Below are positions 3,262 to 28,680 of a stretch of DNA of 32,000 nucleotides, piece by piece. Numbering within the stretch: the first letter of the stretch is position 1; each line of letters begins with the position of its first letter. This DNA is from an uncultured Chloroflexia bacterium (lineage in GTDB: Bacteria > Chloroflexota > Anaerolineae > Anaerolineales > Anaerolineaceae). The stretch is taken from assembly GCA_963704755.1 (NCBI GenBank), contig OY969938.1:1950001-1982000 (forward strand), written 5' to 3'. A program made the position numbers and the translations under genes. The notes under the pieces are model-generated. The model was given only the letters and a program-made list of their open reading frames with translations, ran no database searches and was not told the DNA's origin.

Positions 3262-3371
3262 GTTACTACTCAAGCCGGTTCGGAAATTAGGGGTGTTTTA
3301 TTATTTTTCGTGTGCTTCACACACGAAAAATAATAAAACACCCCGCTTTTTTGCGATAGCTGAGTAATTTC
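3262..3371. repeat. Composite palindromic element: degenerate outer box pair bracketing a 25-bp perfect hairpin (3290-3344)
   Basis: Inner hairpin GGGGTGTTTTATTATTTTTCGTGTG-CTTCA-CACACGAAAAATAATAAAACACCCC, followed by GCTTTTTTGCG. Outer arms GTTACTACTCAAG (3262-3274) and CTGAGTAATTTC (3360-3371) are degenerate copies of the CTGAGYAGTTAC box. Confidence 0.65.
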
Positions 3372-3664
3372 TAATTGTTCGTGATTCTCTCTAAAAAGTA
3401 ATCCGGCTTGTGGTATAGGCCTCCAACACTTCGAATTTGGGCCATTTTTTGGATTTAATCCAGGCAGAAAGGATTCCGGCCGGCCCAAACAGGCGGCATT
3501 GGGCCACAGAATGGGGAAAAACTATTTTATTGATCAGCACAAATAAGGAAGACAGCCGACCCTGTCCGGCTATAGGACGATTCTATCCCATCCGGCGTAG
3601 GTGTCAATCGGCCGGGCAGCTAAAAGGCGGCCTGGCGGATTTATTTAACCTGTTGATAATAGAA

Positions 3665-4381
3665 TTAAATCCGAGCCGCAATATCCAGCCAGGTCTCTTT
3701 GGTCAAAAAGCTCTCTTCAACCTGCTCTTCCAATTCCAGAAATCGTTTGTAGGGAAGGCTGAATGAAAGAATATCTTTATCGATATATTTTCGAGCCGAA
3801 GGATCGGTTAATCCGATAATACATTTGGGATTTTCGGCTTCCACCTGTTCAAGTGCATATAAGACAGATTGCTGGCAACCGGAGGCAAAGTCAACTTTAA
3901 CGTTGTCCTGGGTGGACCGGTCGTAATTGGCAAACCACATGAGCGCGGAAAGTTGATCGGCATTGGCCAAAAATATAATGATTTCCGGTACCTCATCTTC
4001 GCCTAATTCGGATATGGGCATAAAAACAATAAATTCTTTGCTGGAAACTTGCGGTAAGCTATTTACAAATTGCGCAGCCAGCTCGGGACTCTTTTTGTAG
4101 AACTCACCTTGCCTTCCTCCTATACCCCCGGTCGACAAAAAATACTCGATAAAACCCAATTCGAAACGTTTAAAACCCAATCCAACTTTACCGCCGGAAC
4201 AAGTCGTCGTCTTTTCGTCAAAAACAGCAATTCGCCCTTTGGCCGCGGCATTCAGTAATGAGATAACGCAGCCCCGTTTTCCTTCTTGAAACTGCAAAGC
4301 TCCCTCGGGTTTGGCCTCCGAACGGAAAACAGCTACAGGTTGATTTTTCAGTTTGATAGCATTCGCAAGCTTACTCTTCAT
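3665..4381 (-). CDS. DUF169 domain protein
   Basis: The ORF is 3665-4396. I prefer the internal ATG at 4381 (MKSKLAN...) because GGGAGA lies 7 nt upstream. Sequence style ([25 protein letters not shown]) is DUF169-like. Visibly lower GC than its neighbours. Confidence 0.7.
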
Positions 4382-4432
4382 ACTTATATCTCCCATTCCA
4401 GAATATCACGGTACGTCACATCTTACCGGTCA

Positions 4433-4596
4433 ACATTAGCCTCAGGGCGATTGCAGCCTGCCTGCATTTCGAGGGCAATTCCCCAAAGAGTGGGTTTTTG
4501 AGGGTTATTGTGGGGCGTAGCCCCACAATAACCCTCAAAAATATCTCTTTGTTGGGACTAAATTGGCATGATGCGATTGCCCTGACATTAGCCTCA
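4433..4596 (+). mobile_element. MITE-like non-autonomous element, copy A (140-bp core 4445-4584 plus 12-bp direct repeats)
   Basis: Flanking direct repeat ACATTAGCCTCA at 4433-4444 and 4585-4596. Imperfect terminal inverted repeat GGGCGATTGC...GCGATTGCCC. Central 22-bp perfect hairpin 4495-4541. 133/140 identical to copy B at 24629-24768. Confidence 0.7.
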
Positions 4597-4826
4597 TCCA
4601 TATCGATGAAGCAACTCCTGCCCTAATTATAATGAGATTTGCAGGACCGCTTTGACTGGAAACCGGCGGCCTCATTCCAAGGCAGTGGATTTACATCCCG
4701 GTGCTCACCAGATGAATCAGGCGCTTGACGCCACGGCCGTCAATGAATTAGAACCTCCTGGCTTAGCGTCCCTCTGACGAAGGTATGCCTTTAGTCAATA
4801 ATGTTTGCCTGGTTTGATCCGCACTC

Positions 4827-4866
4827 GCCCTCACCCCAACCCCTCTCCCAGAAGCGGGAGAGGGGC
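4827..4866 (+). repeat. GC-rich CCCTCACCCC...CCCCTCTCCC/GGGAGAGGGG hairpin repeat, copy 1
   Basis: 10-bp stem CCCCTCTCCC (4840-4849) / GGGAGAGGGG (4856-4865). Related copies lie at 5099-5137 (inverted) and 15181-15230. Confidence 0.7.
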
Positions 4867-5040
4867 AGGAAAAGCCTGCTGCGCCGGGTTGGGGGCTATT
4901 TTGGGCCCGGATTCGGTATACCCGGACGGCGGTTACCCCTATCCCCACGCTTCGCGGAGGGAGAAGGCGCTTAATTCTGCTCGCCGGCGAGGCATGCATG
5001 AAAGAGATTCAGGTTGATCTGGTTGTTTTGGGAATGTCCA

Positions 5041-5233
5041 GTGCGGATTTTAGGAGAGGAATCTGGCCCTTCGCTCCAAATCTGTTTTTGATTTCATTCC
5101 CCTCTCCCGTTCTGGGAGAGGGGCCAGGGGTGAGGGCCGGCGCTGGCCGAGAAGTTCCTTAGCCTGCCGGAGACTGCGCCTCCTCCTAACCTCCCCCAAA
5201 ATCCAAAGTGCGGATTTTAGGGGAGGAATCTGG
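5041..5233 (+). repeat. 26-nt direct repeat pair (5041-5066, 5208-5233) bracketing GC-rich hairpin repeat copy 2 (5099-5137, inverted)
   Basis: GTGCGGATTTTAGGAGAGGAATCTGG versus GTGCGGATTTTAGGGGAGGAATCTGG (24/26). Inner hairpin CCCCTCTCCC-GTTCT-GGGAGAGGGG followed by CCAGGGGTGAGGGC. Confidence 0.7.
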
Positions 5234-5310
5234 TCTGCTCGCAAGTAGTGTGGGATGAGACCTCGAAAGATAGACAGTCCAAATCCAGCATCCATAGTAA
5301 AATTTCCTCT

Positions 5311-8935: not shown

Positions 8936-9246
8936 AAGAAATTTGCTGCCCCACCTGGATTAAAGATTTATTGGTAAAAGTATTGTAACCCGAGTTTGAT
9001 TTTGCAACACCCGCCGGCCGGCCAGTAGTGCATATCGGGGCGCAGCCTCTCCTTTCCCGATTCCCGTCCAAAGCAAAAACCACTTTGGCGGGAAGAGCCA
9101 ATCGCCCCACCTAAAACCCGTATTTTGGATTTTAGCGGAATCAAAATTCTAATCTTTTGTGATAAACAATACGAAATTAGTTATAATACCTTGGATCGAT
9201 CCAATTCGATGATCCAATCCCATATTATTTGCCCAGGAGGAAAGTG

Positions 9247-11118: not shown

Positions 11119-11566
11119 GGGAAGACGCCGGCCGAAAAGATGCATTGGCTATTTGGCCATTGCTATAAACGGCTGGCCGCGCCCCTCACCTGGCCTGTCC
11201 CCGTCGTTTTGTATTGACCGGGTAAGAACACGTTCGTGGCAGCATATACAAGGTCTGAGTAGCTTCTCGCATATCCTATCAGTACTATTAGGTGGGATAA
11301 GCGCTCATCGATCATGAAAAACCTATCAGCAGACAAACTGGCGGAATTTGCGCGAATCAGATTTAGGATACGTTGGCAACGCACCAAAAGCATCGGCTTT
11401 TCATATAATTTAGTTACGAATGAATCGGGTTGGGGTACGATGGGAACACGAAAGTAAGCCAAACCAATAACAATTCCATGACCAGCCCGTGCCCAGGGTT
11501 GTTTGCTGTCCAAGCTCTATGGAACTTATTATCCCCTGCAATTGTGTTTTGTCGGAGTTAAAAGAA

Positions 11567-12277
11567 ATGGAAGATCAACGTTATTCAATAACCATAAACA
11601 ATATTCGATCGCCTGAAATTAAAGATTTCTTGGAAAATGCTTCTAATATCATGGCAGAAAATGAAAACTTCTTGTACTTCAAGGCACAAAATACTTACGA
11701 TGAAATTGTTGGGTTAGCTAATGACTATATTCAATACATCAGAAATCTTTTTAAAAGCGGGGCTACAACAAATGATTTTACACGTTTAGCTCTGCTCTAT
11801 TATCTTAATCATATTTTGCAACCTGGTTATGGATCAATTTATGTCAATTTCTTGCTGGGGAATGTTCCCTCTTGTTTCATGAATCTTAGGTTACAGACAG
11901 AATCTCTTTGTACGTGTTATCTCGCAGATAAAGATAATAAATCCATGGACTTCTTTCAAGACAGAATAAACACTTTTAAAGAGAAGTCAAACAACTACAA
12001 TATTACTCAATTAGTTAAAAGATTTGATAAGGAAATAGGTTCAACTGATGCAGCAACAACTCTTTGGAAAGAATTATCAGAATGGCTGCATACAAAAGGG
12101 GTTATGAATGAAATGGTCGAAGGTTTAATAGAGAGTTCAAATATTTCTGCCTGGAATTTGATTATCCCTATAAATTATTGTGAAAGCGATTTGTTTTCAT
12201 TGCAGGAATTGGGAGAAAAAATCCACAAATTTAGAGAATTACTCAATATGGCAATGAAACAATCCTCTCCGGAGTAA
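11567..12277 (+). CDS. Orphan hypothetical protein in a strongly AT-rich islet
   Basis: Long ORF in AT-rich DNA, where stop codons are frequent by chance. GGAG lies 9 nt upstream of the ATG at 11567 (the ORF track starts at 11489). Helix-rich, Asn/Lys/Ile-rich composition. I recognise no family. Confidence 0.6.
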   Translation: MEDQRYSITINNIRSPEIKDFLENASNIMAENENFLYFKAQNTYDEIVGLANDYIQYIRNLFKSGATTNDFTRLALLYYLNHILQPGYGSIYVNFLLGNVPSCFMNLRLQTESLCTCYLADKDNKSMDFFQDRINTFKEKSNNYNITQLVKRFDKEIGSTDAATTLWKELSEWLHTKGVMNEMVEGLIESSNISAWNLIIPINYCESDLFSLQELGEKIHKFRELLNMAMKQSSPE

Positions 12278-12622: not shown

Positions 12623-13294
12623 ATGGAGCTCAATCGAAAATTCTGGAATGAACGGCAGCAGGCCCTGCGTCTGGCGCTGCGCGACCCGGCGGACCACCCG
12701 CAGGCGGTCGCGTTGTTCCTCGACCAGCACGCCATGGTCCACACGGCCGGTATGGCACAGTCCGGGTTGTGGTCCTTCGAGGACGAAGTCTGGCAGGGGC
12801 TGGACGAAGCCGCCGCACGCCAGGTACCGCCTAAACTGGAGCATTCCGTCGCCTGGACTACCTTCCACCTGGCCCGCATCGAGGATGTAACCATGAACCT
12901 GCTGCTGGTCGGCAGCCCACAGGTTTTCCGGCAGAGCGGCTGGATGGATCGATTGGGGATCCGCCTGGCGCATACCGGCAACGGCATGGACGAGCCGGCG
13001 GTCAGCGACTTTAGCGAGCAGGTGCATCTGGCTGCCCTGCGCGCCTACCGCCTGGCGGTAGGGCAGCGCACCCGCGAGATTGTCGGCCAAATCGACGCGC
13101 AAGCGCTGCGCCAAAAAGTTCAGCCGGCCCGCCTGCAACGGGTCCTGGACGAAGGGGCACTGGTCGAGGAAGCCCGCGGCCTGCTGGATTACTGGGGCGG
13201 GCTGACCGGCGCCGGCTTGCTGCTGATGCCGCCCACACGCCACAATTTCGTCCACCTCAACGAGGCATTGCGGATCTTAAAAAAGATGAAATAA
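12623..13294 (+). CDS. DinB-family (DinB_2-like) protein
   Basis: HSVAWTTFHLARIEDV is a typical DinB-fold helix with a His ligand. GAGGGG lies 6 nt upstream of the ATG. Confidence 0.7.
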   Translation: MELNRKFWNERQQALRLALRDPADHPQAVALFLDQHAMVHTAGMAQSGLWSFEDEVWQGLDEAAARQVPPKLEHSVAWTTFHLARIEDVTMNLLLVGSPQVFRQSGWMDRLGIRLAHTGNGMDEPAVSDFSEQVHLAALRAYRLAVGQRTREIVGQIDAQALRQKVQPARLQRVLDEGALVEEARGLLDYWGGLTGAGLLLMPPTRHNFVHLNEALRILKKMK

Positions 13295-13336
13295 ACGTTT
13301 TGGTGCGACATAGGCGCACCAAAACGTTTATTTCAT
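13286..13336 (+). repeat. 22-bp perfect stem hairpin overlapping the DinB stop codon
   Basis: ATGAAATAAACGTTTTGGTGCG-ACATAGG-CGCACCAAAACGTTTATTTCAT. No T-run follows, so terminator function is uncertain. Confidence 0.6.
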
Positions 13337-13357
13337 CCGGTTGGTGCTTGACTCCAA

Positions 13358-13403
13358 TAAATAAACAGTGTATATTTATATATAAATATACACTGTTTAT
13401 TTA
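13358..13403. repeat. 46-bp perfect loop-less AT-rich palindrome
   Basis: TAAATAAACAGTGTATATTTATA|TATAAATATACACTGTTTATTTA; the 23-bp arms were checked base by base. Confidence 0.85.
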
Positions 13404-13430
13404 AAAACCGCATAACCCAACGGAATAGAA

Positions 13431-13487
13431 TCTCGAAATTGAGGTGTTTGCAGGGACTTCGTCCCTGCAAACACCTCAATTTCGAGA
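13431..13487. repeat. 27-bp perfect stem, TTC loop: CGAAATTGAG hairpin family member
   Basis: TCTCGAAATTGAGGTGTTTGCAGGGAC-TTC-GTCCCTGCAAACACCTCAATTTCGAGA. Ends 49 nt upstream of the TetR start. Confidence 0.85.
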
Positions 13488-13535
13488 ACTTCTTAAAATA
13501 CGCCTGAGTTGGCGCGTTTATTGATTGGAGTAACC

Positions 13536-22462: not shown

Positions 22463-23481
22463 TTACTTTGGAGCTTGCCCGCTGGAATGGCGGACGATTA
22501 ACTCCGGTTTAAGAATGACTTGCTGCTCTTCCAGTTTTTCTGCGCGCAGAGTTCGAATGAGCATTTCACAAACACGACTGCCGATCTGGTAAACCGGCTG
22601 CTTCAAGGTCGTCAGGGGCGGGTGGGAATGTTCGGCCATGGGGATATCGTCGAAACCGGTAATGGATATCTCCTTCCCAACCGTCAGGCCCTGATCTTGG
22701 GCAGCGCTCATCGCCCCGAAAGCCATCAGGTCATTACAGCAAAGGATGGCGCTGGGAGGGTCAGACAAATTGAGCAGGTGGTTGGCCACTTCGTAGCCGC
22801 CCGCCTGGGTCAAATCGCCCTGGATGAACCATTCACCCCGGATGGGCAGGTTCAATTCCTCCATCCGCATACGTACCCCGGATAAGCGGTGGGGGAAAAA
22901 TTCAAGTCCGTCGGTGGATAGATGCAGGCAATGGCGCGGTGCCCCAGCTCGTGGAGGTGGTCCACTGCCAGGCGCATCCCGAACTCGGAATCCTCATCCA
23001 CAAAGGGGAAATCGAGCGGCCCTTCCGTGCGGCCGAAGGCCGCAAAAGGGAACCTGGCCGCGCGTAAATAGCTGATACGCGGGTCTTGCTTGCGCGTGCG
23101 CACGATGATAAACCCATCCACGCGTTGGCTTTGCACATTGTGCCGGTAAGCCTGTAATTCCCGCTCTCCTGGCGGATGGGTCGAAACGAGCATGTCGTAG
23201 CCAAACTGAGCGGCCTTGTTGCCCACACCGGCGATGAACTCGCTGAAAAACGGGTCCGAAAAACGCGGCCCAAAGGTGGGCAGGATCAGACCGAGCGTAT
23301 CGGTGTGCTGTTTTTGCAGGCGCTGGGCCATCGAGTTGGGGCTGTAGCCCATCTCCGCCGCCACTTTGCGGACCAATTCCTTCGTCTCCGGGCTGACGTC
23401 GTCGTAATCGGCCAGTGCCCTGGACACGGTAGTGATGGATTTTCCAACCTGGCGAGCAATATCCTTGATCGTCGGCGACAC
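22463..23481 (-). pseudogene. LacI-family transcriptional regulator interrupted by a frameshift, or affected by a homopolymer sequencing error
   Basis: The N-terminal HTH and first half are in ORF 22852-23481 (IKDIARQVGKSITTVSRAL). The C-terminal half is in ORF 22463-22870, in another frame that stays open upstream through 22917. The frames meet at the plus-strand run GGGGGAAAAA (22891-22900). GTG start with AGGAG 5 nt upstream. Confidence 0.8.
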
Positions 23482-23664: not shown

Positions 23665-24561
23665 CTACACTGTAATGTCGTAGGCCTGGCGGTGGTCCGC
23701 CAGCAGGGCCTGGGCCCGTTCCAGGACGGCCGGCATCAGTCTTCTGCCGCCGCTTTCCTCGGCCAGTTCGTCCACCGTGACCGGCGGCGCAAAGCTCAGG
23801 TCCGCCATGATTTGGACCGTCTGCGGCCAGAGCAACTGCTGGATAATTTGGGTAATTTCGGCGATCCGGCGCCGGTCGATCGGGCGGCGCCGCAAGAAAG
23901 TCAAGGGATTTCCGGCAAACTTTTTGAGCAGCACGCCGCTGGCTACCGCCAGCACCAGGCGTGTCTCCTCAGCCTTACGCAGCATAATTTCCAGGCTGGA
24001 AGACCATTCCTTCAGCGTCGATTCAGTGTGCGGGACGATGCTCGGGTCCGGCTCGATCGTGCCCGAGCCGAATTGCAGCAGGGCGCCGCCGTTCTGCAAA
24101 TGCTGGACTGCTTCGCGCAAGGCCACCATGCGGTCCCCAATTTCGCTATTGGCATACACGAACCATTTATTGGCGTTTTCCATGGCGTGGTAAAAAGGCG
24201 TTTCCCACACCAGGATTTTCAAGTCCTTGCGCGGGATAAATGAGCCCAGGCAGACCAAATCATACGCCCCAGGATGATTGGAGACGATCAACAGCGGCCC
24301 TTCGGCCGGGATGTTCTCGATCCCGCGCGCGTTGACCTGGATGCCGAAATCCTGGACCACACTCTTACAGCCCGAAGGCATACCGCCCACCCCGATCGCC
24401 TCGTCCGCTCGGGCAAAGATGCCGGCAAACCGGTTGGTCGGCGGATAAACCAGCCAGCCGAAGGTACGCCGGATAAAGCTGTCTCGCTTCAGCCCCAGGC
24501 CTAGAAAAATTTCATCGGTAATACGCTCACGTAACTGGTCAATTTGTAATTTTGCTGTCAT
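23665..24561 (-). CDS. Lysophospholipid/1-acylglycerol-3-phosphate acyltransferase family protein (PlsC-like)
   Basis: LLIVSNHPGAYD contains the H-x4-D acyltransferase motif. I chose the ATG at 24561 (MTAKLQ...) within ORF 23665-24588. Confidence 0.7.
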   Translation of the reverse strand: MTAKLQIDQLRERITDEIFLGLGLKRDSFIRRTFGWLVYPPTNRFAGIFARADEAIGVGGMPSGCKSVVQDFGIQVNARGIENIPAEGPLLIVSNHPGAYDLVCLGSFIPRKDLKILVWETPFYHAMENANKWFVYANSEIGDRMVALREAVQHLQNGGALLQFGSGTIEPDPSIVPHTESTLKEWSSSLEIMLRKAEETRLVLAVASGVLLKKFAGNPLTFLRRRPIDRRRIAEITQIIQQLLWPQTVQIMADLSFAPPVTVDELAEESGGRRLMPAVLERAQALLADHRQAYDITV

Positions 24562-24616: not shown

Positions 24617-24780
24617 CTGTTAACGCCAGGGCGATTGCAGCCTGCCTGCTTTTCGAGGGCAATTCCCCAAAGAATGGGTTTTTGAGTGTTATTGTGGGGC
24701 GTAGCCCCACAATAACACTCAAAATTATCTCTCTGTTGGGGCTAAATTGGCATGATGCGATTGCCCTGCTGTTAACGCCA
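24617..24780 (+). mobile_element. MITE-like element, copy B (140-bp core 24629-24768 plus 12-bp direct repeats)
   Basis: Direct repeat CTGTTAACGCCA at 24617-24628 and 24769-24780. Same termini and central hairpin (24680-24724) as copy A. Confidence 0.7.
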
Positions 24781-24781
24781 A

Positions 24782-24835
24782 CGGGTTATGCGGTATTTTT
24801 GGCCGGCGCGCCGGCCAAAAATACCGCATAACCCG
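24782..24835. repeat. 54-bp perfect loop-less palindrome (27-bp arms)
   Basis: CGGGTTATGCGGTATTTTTGGCCGGCG|CGCCGGCCAAAAATACCGCATAACCCG. A solo 12-mer ACCGCATAACCC also occurs at about 13407-13418. Confidence 0.85.
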
Positions 24836-28494: not shown

Positions 28495-28523
28495 TTGACG
28501 CAGCATCCCCGCTATGTTAAAAT
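28495..28523 (+). promoter_or_regulatory. Sigma-70-type promoter candidate for the histidine kinase/regulator pair
   Basis: TTGACG (28495-28500), a 17-nt spacer, then TAAAAT (28518-28523). Confidence 0.45.
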
Positions 28524-28534
28524 AAGTTAAGAAA

Positions 28535-28645
28535 TAACTACTCAGGCTCCTATCAAAGATTCCCCGAATTTGAGATGTTTGCGAGGGCTTCGCCCTCGCA
28601 AACATCTCAAATTCGGGGTTCTTACCCGTTTGGCTGAGCAGTTAC
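28535..28645. repeat. Composite element: CTGAGYAGTTAC box pair bracketing a 27-bp perfect hairpin (28562-28618) of the CGAATTTGAG family
   Basis: TAACTACTCAG (28535-28545) ... CCCCGAATTTGAGATGTTTGCGAGGGC-TTC-GCCCTCGCAAACATCTCAAATTCGGGG ... CTGAGCAGTTAC (28634-28645). Confidence 0.85.
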
Positions 28646-28680
28646 GTTAAGAGAAAATCAAACCGGGTTCCGCCATCGCA

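Follow-up and report, generated by a model that had tools for sequence, protein, structure and literature searches.

Genes and repeats at the two loci

The window, that is, the whole stretch of 32,000 nucleotides that was analysed, contains two minus-strand genes, one for a DUF169 protein and one for an acyltransferase, and close to the start of each of them lies one copy of a short repeat (Table 1). Repeat finding and pairwise alignment agree that the segments 4445-4584 (within copy A) and 24629-24768 (within copy B) align without gaps, in the same orientation, and are identical at 133 of 140 positions, as the earlier note on this DNA had described. The seven mismatches fall at copy-A positions 4466, 4490, 4503, 4533, 4541, 4549, and 4557. 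When the window was searched with the left end and with the central palindrome, allowing up to three mismatches, no third copy or fragment was found.

Each copy is enclosed by a perfect direct repeat of its own. Around copy A this is the 12-mer ACATTAGCCTCA, at 4433-4444 and 4585-4596, and around copy B it is CTGTTAACGCCA, at 24617-24628 and 24769-24780. Both 12-mers finish in CA, and adding this CA to the element gives it symmetric tips, CAGGGC...GCCCTG. The two copies in the window fit equally an element of 140 bp that duplicates 12 bp of its target and one of 142 bp that duplicates 10 bp, and relatives were therefore sought.

Table 1. Coordinates of the two repeat copies, their parts, and the genes downstream of them.
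Feature	Position	Strand	Remarks
DUF169 gene, downstream of copy A	3665..4381	-	Pfam PF02596; start as in the database protein P0001 (238 aa)
Copy A, left 10-bp duplication ACATTAGCCT	4433..4442	.	10/10 identical to 4585-4594; abuts CAGGGC, as in 15 metagenome copies
Copy A, 142-bp MITE, very probably of ISAs1 type, CAGGGCGATTGC...GCGATTGCCCTG	4443..4584	+	
Copy A, left terminal inverted repeat CAGGGCGATTGCAG	4443..4456	+	Differs from ISAs1 CAGGGCAATCGCAT at positions 7, 10, and 14
Copy A, central perfect hairpin	4495..4541	.	22-bp stem, 3-nt loop
Copy A, right terminal inverted repeat ATGCGATTGCCCTG	4571..4584	+	Matches the right end of full-length elements of the ISAs1 family at 14/14
Copy A, right duplication ACATTAGCCT	4585..4594	.	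Followed by a coincidental CA, 4595-4596
Acyltransferase gene, downstream of copy B	23665..24561	-	Pfam PF01553; start as in the database protein P0128 (298 aa)
Copy B, left 10-bp duplication CTGTTAACGC	24617..24626	.	
Copy B, 142-bp MITE	24627..24768	+	135/142 identical to copy A
Copy B, central hairpin	24680..24724	.	21-bp perfect stem, 3-nt loop
Copy B, right duplication CTGTTAACGC	24769..24778	.	Followed by a coincidental CA, 24779-24780

Boundaries of the element and its target-site duplication

Metagenomes were scanned with a pattern made of the two termini, CAGGGCGATTGC-N(105-135)-GCGATTGCCCTG, in which the CA and the TG are required, so that copies without them are undetectable by it. 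The scan gave 31 further elements, 131-157 bp in length. In 15 of the 31, a perfect 10/10 duplication lies immediately at the ends (offset 0); the match is 9/10 in one and 8/10 in another, and in three or four more the duplication matches after a shift of 1-2 nt. As a control, the left flank was compared with shifted positions of the right flank, and the agreement never exceeded 7/10.

Since the flanks of these relatives show 10-bp repeats abutting CAGGGC, the element itself begins with the CA, which is conserved, and 10 bp are duplicated. The repeat appears to be of 12 bp since, at each of the two window loci, another CA happens to stand next to the right duplication, an occurrence, nominally 1 in 256, that we can only call chance; in the other copies with a perfect duplication, CA follows the right duplication in just 1 of 15. 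The corrected element is thus 142 bp long, and its locus-specific duplications are identical at all ten positions.

The description of the flanks given in the earlier note, as locus-specific direct repeats of 12 bp, was literally accurate, but the duplication is shorter by the two bases that belong to the element, and the view that it is unusually long does not survive the comparison with the metagenome copies. The same note had asked whether the 12-mers might be part of a longer conserved element; this is so for the CA, 2 of the 12 bases, and the other 10 are duplication. Likewise, the imperfect inverted repeat that it had recognized at the ends is present, but it is not confined to GGGCGATTGC / GCGATTGCCC: with the CA restored, it becomes CAGGGCGATTGC / CAGGGCAATCGC, the second of these being the right end read inward, with 10 of 12 positions paired.

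Two copies in the window and a more distant one in the metagenome contig L042, a length below about 600 bp, the lack of coding sequence, terminal inverted repeats, and target-site duplications are what is generally expected of a MITE. These data support the view that the repeat is a short, non-coding, non-autonomous MITE with terminal inverted repeats and locus-specific target-site duplications.

Metagenome relatives

The 33 elements (31 plus the two window copies) fall into 19 subfamilies whose cores are unrelated and which have in common only 12-22 nt at each end. In several of the other subfamilies the inverted repeat reaches about 22 nt, CAGGGCGATTGCATCTAAATTT. The working consensus of the termini is CAGGGCRATYGCAT; they can also be written in the degenerate form CAGGGCRATYGC...GCRATYGCCCTG. 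Among the 17 perfect duplications, no target-site consensus is apparent. Most subfamilies fold far better than shuffled sequence (mononucleotide shuffles), and the metagenome copies have no consistent position, distance, or orientation with respect to neighbouring genes, as judged from crude ORF calls.

For the window subfamily itself, the sole relative found is the element in L042, with about 70% identity. A scan of 185,579 species-representative genomes with the subfamily-specific 20-mer GGGCGATTGCAGCCTGCCTG, taken from the left end, gave only four chance matches of 20-22 nt, in unrelated taxa. BLAST against plasmids, with the element and a concatenate of 12 subfamilies as queries, gave no match; viral contigs, when scanned, contained neither the two-termini pattern nor the extended inverted repeat; and a full-text search for the terminus string returned one unrelated primer only.

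Relationship of the termini to the ISAs1 family

In some subgroups of IS4 the duplication measures about 10-13 bp, and the transposases of IS4 and ISAs1 are both DDE enzymes of the DDE_Tnp_1 (PF01609) superfamily. The ISAs1 family is defined by an inverted repeat of 14-22 bp that begins with CAGGG and by a direct repeat of 10 bp (PMC11946415). A member such as ISArsp11, 1306 bp in length, has the IRL CAGGGCTGATGCAAAGTCG and the 10-bp direct repeat GGAACAGCAC (PMC6305408, Table 3). The criterion for membership that we applied was a target-site duplication of 8-10 bp, typically 10. Both ends of the window element, CAGGGCGATTGCAG / CAGGGCAATCGCAT, start with CAGGG, and the duplication is of 10 bp, matching at 10/10 positions in both window copies and in the 15 metagenome copies mentioned above.

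Full-length elements provide a closer comparison. The H-repeat transposase of E. coli K-12, YhhI, was used as a tblastn query against plasmids and gave 868 records, and the ends were determined for eight diverse matches. The ends of the YhhI element are CAGGGAAAGATC... / ...GATCTTGCCCTG. Plasmid pTH1 of Hydrogenophilus thermoluteolus carries a 1274-bp element, with a gene annotated "ISAs1 family transposase" and inverted repeats CAGGGCAATCGCATGAA; its IRL is CAGGGCAATCGCATGAATGCC, its IRR is CAGGGCAATCGCATGAACGGC, and it is flanked by the 10-bp duplication CAACGCTCGA. Over 14 nt, the right end of this element, ...TTCATGCGATTGCCCTG, and that of the window element are the same; with three metagenome elements (L012, L021, and L030) the identity extends over 17 nt. 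In fact, the 14 nt at the right end of the window MITE have exact matches at both ends of the Hydrogenophilus element.

The left end is a variant. The window sequence CAGGGCGATTGCAG agrees with the full-length CAGGGCAATCGCAT at 11 of 14 positions, and the differences at positions 7 and 10 are transitions. Position 14 is T in most other subfamilies, and the subfamilies with the left end CAGGGCGATTGCAT match the full-length elements at 12 of 14. A 214-bp MITE in contig L020 carries the variant core GCGATTGC at both of its ends and has a 9/10 duplication. Because it has this core at both ends, positions 7 and 10 of the inverted repeat tolerate R and Y, respectively.

The pTH1 transposase belongs to a very abundant and highly conserved lineage. 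At E <= 1e-40 its homologues number at least 7975, and among the 120 listed, all are at least 84% identical to it and all have the PF13808+PF01609 arrangement; one transposase protein of this lineage occurs in 1443 blocks of the collection. For four of these proteins, 40 metagenome or genome loci were taken, of which 39 have a 1270-1274-bp element with CAGGGCAATCGCA(T/C)GAA at both ends; the remaining locus, L085, is truncated short of the element's right end. About nine distinct insertion sites of these elements show perfect 10-bp duplications. Many short contigs have no duplications, which is expected because assemblies break or join at a multicopy repeat. No full-length element with the left terminus CAGGGCGATTGC was recovered among those sampled. 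Thus, the search for a full-length IS with the same termini, which the earlier note had suggested, gave an answer that differs between the two ends: the right one is found, 14/14, in ISAs1 elements of 1270-1274 bp, but the left one agrees at 11/14. By these alignments, the termini are common to the MITE and to full-length elements that encode an ISAs1-type transposase (PF13808 DDE_Tnp_1_assoc + PF01609 DDE_Tnp_1).

The earlier note had attributed the element to the IS4 family. That suggestion was based on the 12-bp reading and is unsupported; CAGGG termini together with a 10-bp duplication are instead the signature of ISAs1, and the right end is identical at 14/14 to that of ISAs1 elements. 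In its full form, the IS4 explanation would have a 140-bp MITE, GGGCGATTGC...GCGATTGCCCTG, with a genuine 12-bp duplication. The direct repeat is literally 12/12 at both window loci, and a length of 12 bp would suit the range of those IS4 subgroups. On the other hand, 15 relatives have exactly 10 bp abutting CAGGGC, with CA following in just one of them; the tips of a 140-bp element would be asymmetric (GGGC... versus ...CCCTG), whereas those of the family are symmetric, CAGGGC/GCCCTG; and there is an exact 14-nt match between the termini and those of ISAs1 elements. An IS4 derivation was rejected on the corrected duplication length and on the match of the termini to ISAs1, the family with which they were compared rather than IS4, and we regard it as highly improbable.

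The source of the transposase

Pfam scans of all substantial ORFs and tblastn with the ISAs1 transposase YhhI agree that there is no transposase gene in the window, as the earlier note had it; nor did the YhhI query detect a full-length element or a cognate transposase in the 7 kb or so surrounding any of the MITE copies. This might be taken to mean that the element has ISAs1-like termini but is mobilised by a different, uncharacterised transposase of its Chloroflexota-like host, or that it is a dead relic which nothing in the genome can still mobilise. Two further observations point the same way: the left terminus differs at two positions from all the full-length elements sampled, and the subfamily has a single distant relative, the L042 element, its 20-mer having no true match in the 185,579 genomes. 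However, the 10-bp duplication and the CAGGGC-R-AT-Y-GCAT termini are common to bona fide ISAs1 elements, and the variant core, since it stands at both ends of the L020 MITE with its 9/10 duplication, is evidently a functional end. A foreign transposase or a relic is thus, in our judgement, distinctly unlikely. We propose that what is repeated here is a 142-bp MITE whose ends place it in the ISAs1 family and which is mobilised by an ISAs1-type transposase, a reading that we consider very probably correct.

The loci in related genomes

The nearest relatives come from metagenomes; in these contigs the flanking genes show about 80-84% nucleotide identity, and both copies are absent. In L005 and L006, the DUF362 gene is directly beside the pyroglutamyl-peptidase gene (Peptidase_C15), with a spacer of 427 nt, and there is neither a DUF169 gene nor the element. 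In the window, the DUF362 and pyroglutamyl-peptidase genes are about 2 kb apart, and copy A lies in this interval together with the DUF169 gene and additional repeats. The acyltransferase gene of L007 has upstream of it a spacer that is without the element and bears a different palindromic repeat. No base-precise empty site was recovered in L005, L006, or L007, the intergenic DNA being too diverged or rearranged to display one. Four more contigs (L008-L011), with 63% protein identity, are not syntenic. Those window proteins that were looked up in clusters are singletons at 90% identity, and the names attached to homologues, Levilinea for example, indicate Chloroflexota/Anaerolineae.

The DUF169 gene has 46% G+C, against about 57% for the window. 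Its best homologues, with 85-88% amino-acid identity, are from Firmicutes-like bacteria, and the contigs that carry them align within the coding region only. The block that holds copy A also carries this Firmicutes-like gene, which the nearest relatives lack, and copy A thus helps to delimit a recent acquisition.

Position relative to the downstream genes

The duplicated target starts 51 nt upstream of the DUF169 start codon (4381) and 55 nt upstream of that of the acyltransferase gene (24561); these measurements bear out the earlier observation that both copies, in the same orientation, lie some 50-70 bp from the starts of minus-strand genes. In both copies it is the variant left end that faces the gene. 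Because the insertions are in leader or promoter regions, the mRNAs of the two genes must either start inside the element or carry it, with its hairpin, in their 5′ region. At copy B, a perfect palindrome of 54 nt (24782-24835) follows the gene upstream of it and is separated by 3 nt from the right duplication and by 13 nt from the element. Given this palindrome, the acyltransferase promoter must be inside the element, in the 55-nt leader, or in read-through from upstream.

A consensus scan found nothing resembling a promoter in copy A and a single weak candidate, matching 9/12, inside copy B, and no convincing outward promoter was found by such scans in either copy. The terminator-like calls on the plus strand simply reflect the hairpin and the T-rich tail after it; an intrinsic terminator for the minus-strand genes was rejected, the hairpin having on the gene strand a T-run before it and an A-run after it. 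An effect of the copies on the expression of the DUF169 and acyltransferase genes is possible.

The hairpin

Taken with both 12-nt repeats, the element at copy A (4433-4596) is a near-palindrome, whose predicted single-stranded DNA fold has an energy of -48.4 kcal/mol, as compared with -21.4 +/- 2.9 for shuffled sequences (z = -9.2). Among the differences between the copies, the pair 4503/4533 of the stem is G-C in copy A and T-A in copy B, a compensated change that leaves the stem perfect. Seven random substitutions would give one or more compensated stem pairs with a probability of 0.015. In the outer stem, on the other hand, one pair is lost through the change at 4490 and another through that at 4549. 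A consensus fold of three sequences, with the L042 element added, has seven double-change pairs, but it comes from a noisy alignment and has an unfavourable covariation term, which makes it weak evidence. There is in this a mild hint that the palindrome is maintained, either by selection on DNA or RNA structure or by templated repair. One could go further and propose, from the compensated change between the copies and the double changes that set them apart from L042, that the hairpin is preserved by selection and not through recent common descent, the subfamily having been co-opted in a Chloroflexota-like lineage as a transcribed 5′-leader that sets mRNA stability or translation of the genes behind it; we think this unlikely.

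The same observations could be read as signs of a regulatory origin, in which a cis-regulatory or structured-RNA 5′-leader hairpin of the downstream genes was duplicated and was never mobile. The equal orientation of the copies at 51 and 55 nt from the start codons, the very stable predicted fold, and the compensated change that leaves the central stem perfect (P about 0.015) are what such an origin would give. Against it stand the locus-specific 10-bp duplications and the 31 further elements, which have unrelated cores within the same transposon termini. Moreover, the two downstream genes are unrelated (DUF169 and acyltransferase), the metagenome copies have no consistent relation to gene starts, and relatives are without the element at both loci. 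Nor does Rfam recognize the structure: the whole window has no match at gathering thresholds, and the hairpin has only sub-threshold matches to miRNA precursors, with 18-21 bits where gathering requires 55-110. A non-mobile, regulatory origin is accordingly so improbable that we give it almost no credence. A regulatory side-effect of the MITE is a separate matter from its origin, and is possible.

Proposed mechanism and comparison with known elements

For the reading that we prefer, an ISAs1-family MITE, the pathway would be an ordinary one. An ISAs1-family DDE transposase (DDE_Tnp_1_assoc + DDE_Tnp_1), from a gene at another place in the genome or from one since lost, would bind both termini and insert the element at a target cut with a 10-bp stagger, and repair of the gaps would yield the 10-bp direct repeats. 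That the element is mobilised in trans in this organism is what we infer from its ends and its footprint. Since the same termini enclose at least 19 unrelated cores in environmental metagenomes, one abundant transposase lineage appears to service many MITEs that were formed independently.

Compared with the ISAs1 family, which includes ISAs1, IS1358, the E. coli H-repeat ISEc1 with YhhI, ISKpn31, ISArsp11, and the pTH1 element, the window element has the same CAGGG starts and the same 10-bp duplication, and with the pTH1-type elements it shares an identical right terminus, ATGCGATTGCCCTG. It differs in being 142 bp long and without a transposase gene, whereas ISAs1 elements are 1200-1500 bp long and have one PF13808+PF01609 gene. 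Its left inverted repeat has GCGATTGC where the sampled full-length elements have GCAATCGC, and its core, a foldback hairpin, does not detectably resemble the interior of a full-length element. A possibility related to the co-option of the hairpin, and one that we likewise think unlikely, is that the core was captured from the host's abundant family of palindromic repeats, of the TTGAGGTGTTTGCAGGGGC type. If the core is derived from the host in this way, it would show an ISAs1 transposase recruiting host repeats into new MITEs.

Bacterial MITEs are well known as a category, with examples in Correia/NEMIS of Neisseria, ERIC/IRU of enterobacteria, and RUP of Streptococcus pneumoniae. The MaeMITEs of Microcystis are another (PMC2779907). 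Like bacterial MITEs in general, the window element is short and non-coding, has terminal inverted repeats and target duplications, is strongly self-complementary, belongs to one of multiple subfamilies, and, as is mostly the case, lies between genes; like them, it could alter the expression of an adjacent gene when transcribed. The transposase family differs from those of other bacterial MITEs because the termini and the length of the duplication differ. In the literature searched, whose coverage is limited, no description of ISAs1-derived MITEs was found. The mechanism is ordinary, and the element is an additional member of a known category.

What is gained is, in the first place, exact boundaries, a family, and a footprint for two repeats that gene callers would leave blank, and with them the correction of a tempting misreading, that of an "unusually long 12-bp duplication, IS4-like". 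The insertions also point to two leader regions in which transcription may have changed. For the family, the element illustrates usefully, if unsurprisingly, how a single transposase may serve many independently formed non-autonomous elements.

Possible Foreign DNA in the Window

The block at about 3620-5290 of the window, which holds MITE copy A together with further repeats, is missing in L005 and L006, two metagenome contigs of the nearest relatives, where the spacing between the DUF362 and Peptidase_C15 genes is 427 nt. The DUF169 gene of this block has a G+C content of 46%, and its best homologues, at 85-88% amino-acid and 81% nucleotide identity, come from Firmicutes-like bacteria. On these features, the block looks like an insertion gained by horizontal transfer. 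The AT-rich island farther along (Table) may also be foreign DNA; a 262-aa ORF inside it has no match in Pfam. The LacI-family regulator is split: one ORF encodes the HTH domain and the ligand-binding domain's N-terminal part, the other the C-terminal Peripla_BP_3 part; it is either a frameshifted pseudogene or the product of a sequencing error.

Palindromes and a Second Repeat Family

The window also carries a second family of palindromic elements, with units of roughly 95-110 nt, that is unrelated to the ISAs1-type MITE. Its central stem is perfect, of 25-27 bp with a 3-nt loop (consensus about CCCGAAATTGAGGTGTTTGCAGGGGC), and is enclosed on the outside by inverted repeats close to TAACTACTCAGGC / GCCTGAGYAGTTA. 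Short repeats on the flanks, GTTAAGA around 28520-28650 for one, are a hint of target duplications. In L007, another contig of the nearest relatives, the spacer matching the site of MITE copy B holds an element of this second family instead. In the pattern GGTGTT..TGC.GGGGC, the hairpin arm of the family resembles that of the ISAs1-type MITE at L042, the metagenome locus with the only relative found for the window's MITE subfamily.

Smaller repeats of other kinds lie on the right side of MITE copy A (Table): an inverted pair, a direct repeat and a hairpin-forming 35-mer. Several long perfect palindromes occur in intergenic DNA as well, and the one of 54 nt at 24782-24835 adjoins MITE copy B. 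In some of them, including this one, a T-run lies 5′ of a G+C-rich stem and an A-run 3′, which is the order of a canonical terminator reversed.

Table. Coordinates of repeats and other features (window positions unless a locus is named).
Feature	Position	Remarks
Second palindromic family, window members	1932-1984; 13431-13487; 28562-28618	
Same, wider units	about 28520-28650; 13428-13509	
Same, possible further member	3262-3360	
Same, related metagenome organism	L007 5184-5294; L005 about 900-1010	
Long perfect palindromes	24782-24835; 3290-3344; 13285-13337; 13358-13403	intergenic
Imperfect inverted pair	4827-4872 / 5092-5137	46 nt, GCCCTCACCCCAACCCCTCTCCC...
Direct repeat	5040-5066 / 5207-5233	27 nt, AGTGCGGATTTTAGGRGAGGAATCTGG, 96% identity, spacing 167 nt
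Hairpin-forming 35-mer	5192-5226; 9105-9139	two occurrences
Split LacI-family regulator	22463-22870; 22852-23481	minus strand; overlapping ORFs, different frames
AT-rich island	11489-12277	33% G+C vs about 57%
Tandem array	L025 1605-1753	period 66-67 nt
Larger MITE-family relative	L020 5240-5453	214 bp; each end with the inverted repeat in its GATT variant; duplication 9/10
Larger MITE-family relative	L032 129-514	386 bp; extra internal left end; duplication 9/10
pTH1-type ISAs1 element	L053 331-1604; also L057-L096	

MITE Relatives and the pTH1-Type ISAs1 Element

Among metagenome loci of the wider MITE family, the L025 array is not a normal MITE copy: every unit begins with CAGGGCGATTGCCCTG, in which both MITE termini are fused over a common GCGATTGC core, and the array is without a duplication.

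The full-length ISAs1 element of the pTH1 type is usually carried on contigs about 1.3 kb long, a size suggesting that assemblies collapsed at a multicopy repeat. At E ≤ 1e-40 its transposase has at least 7975 homologues; identity is 84% or more for each of the top 120, and a single exact protein (P0365) occurs in 1443 blocks of the searched collection. By these sequence matches, the element is widespread and conserved to an extraordinary degree.
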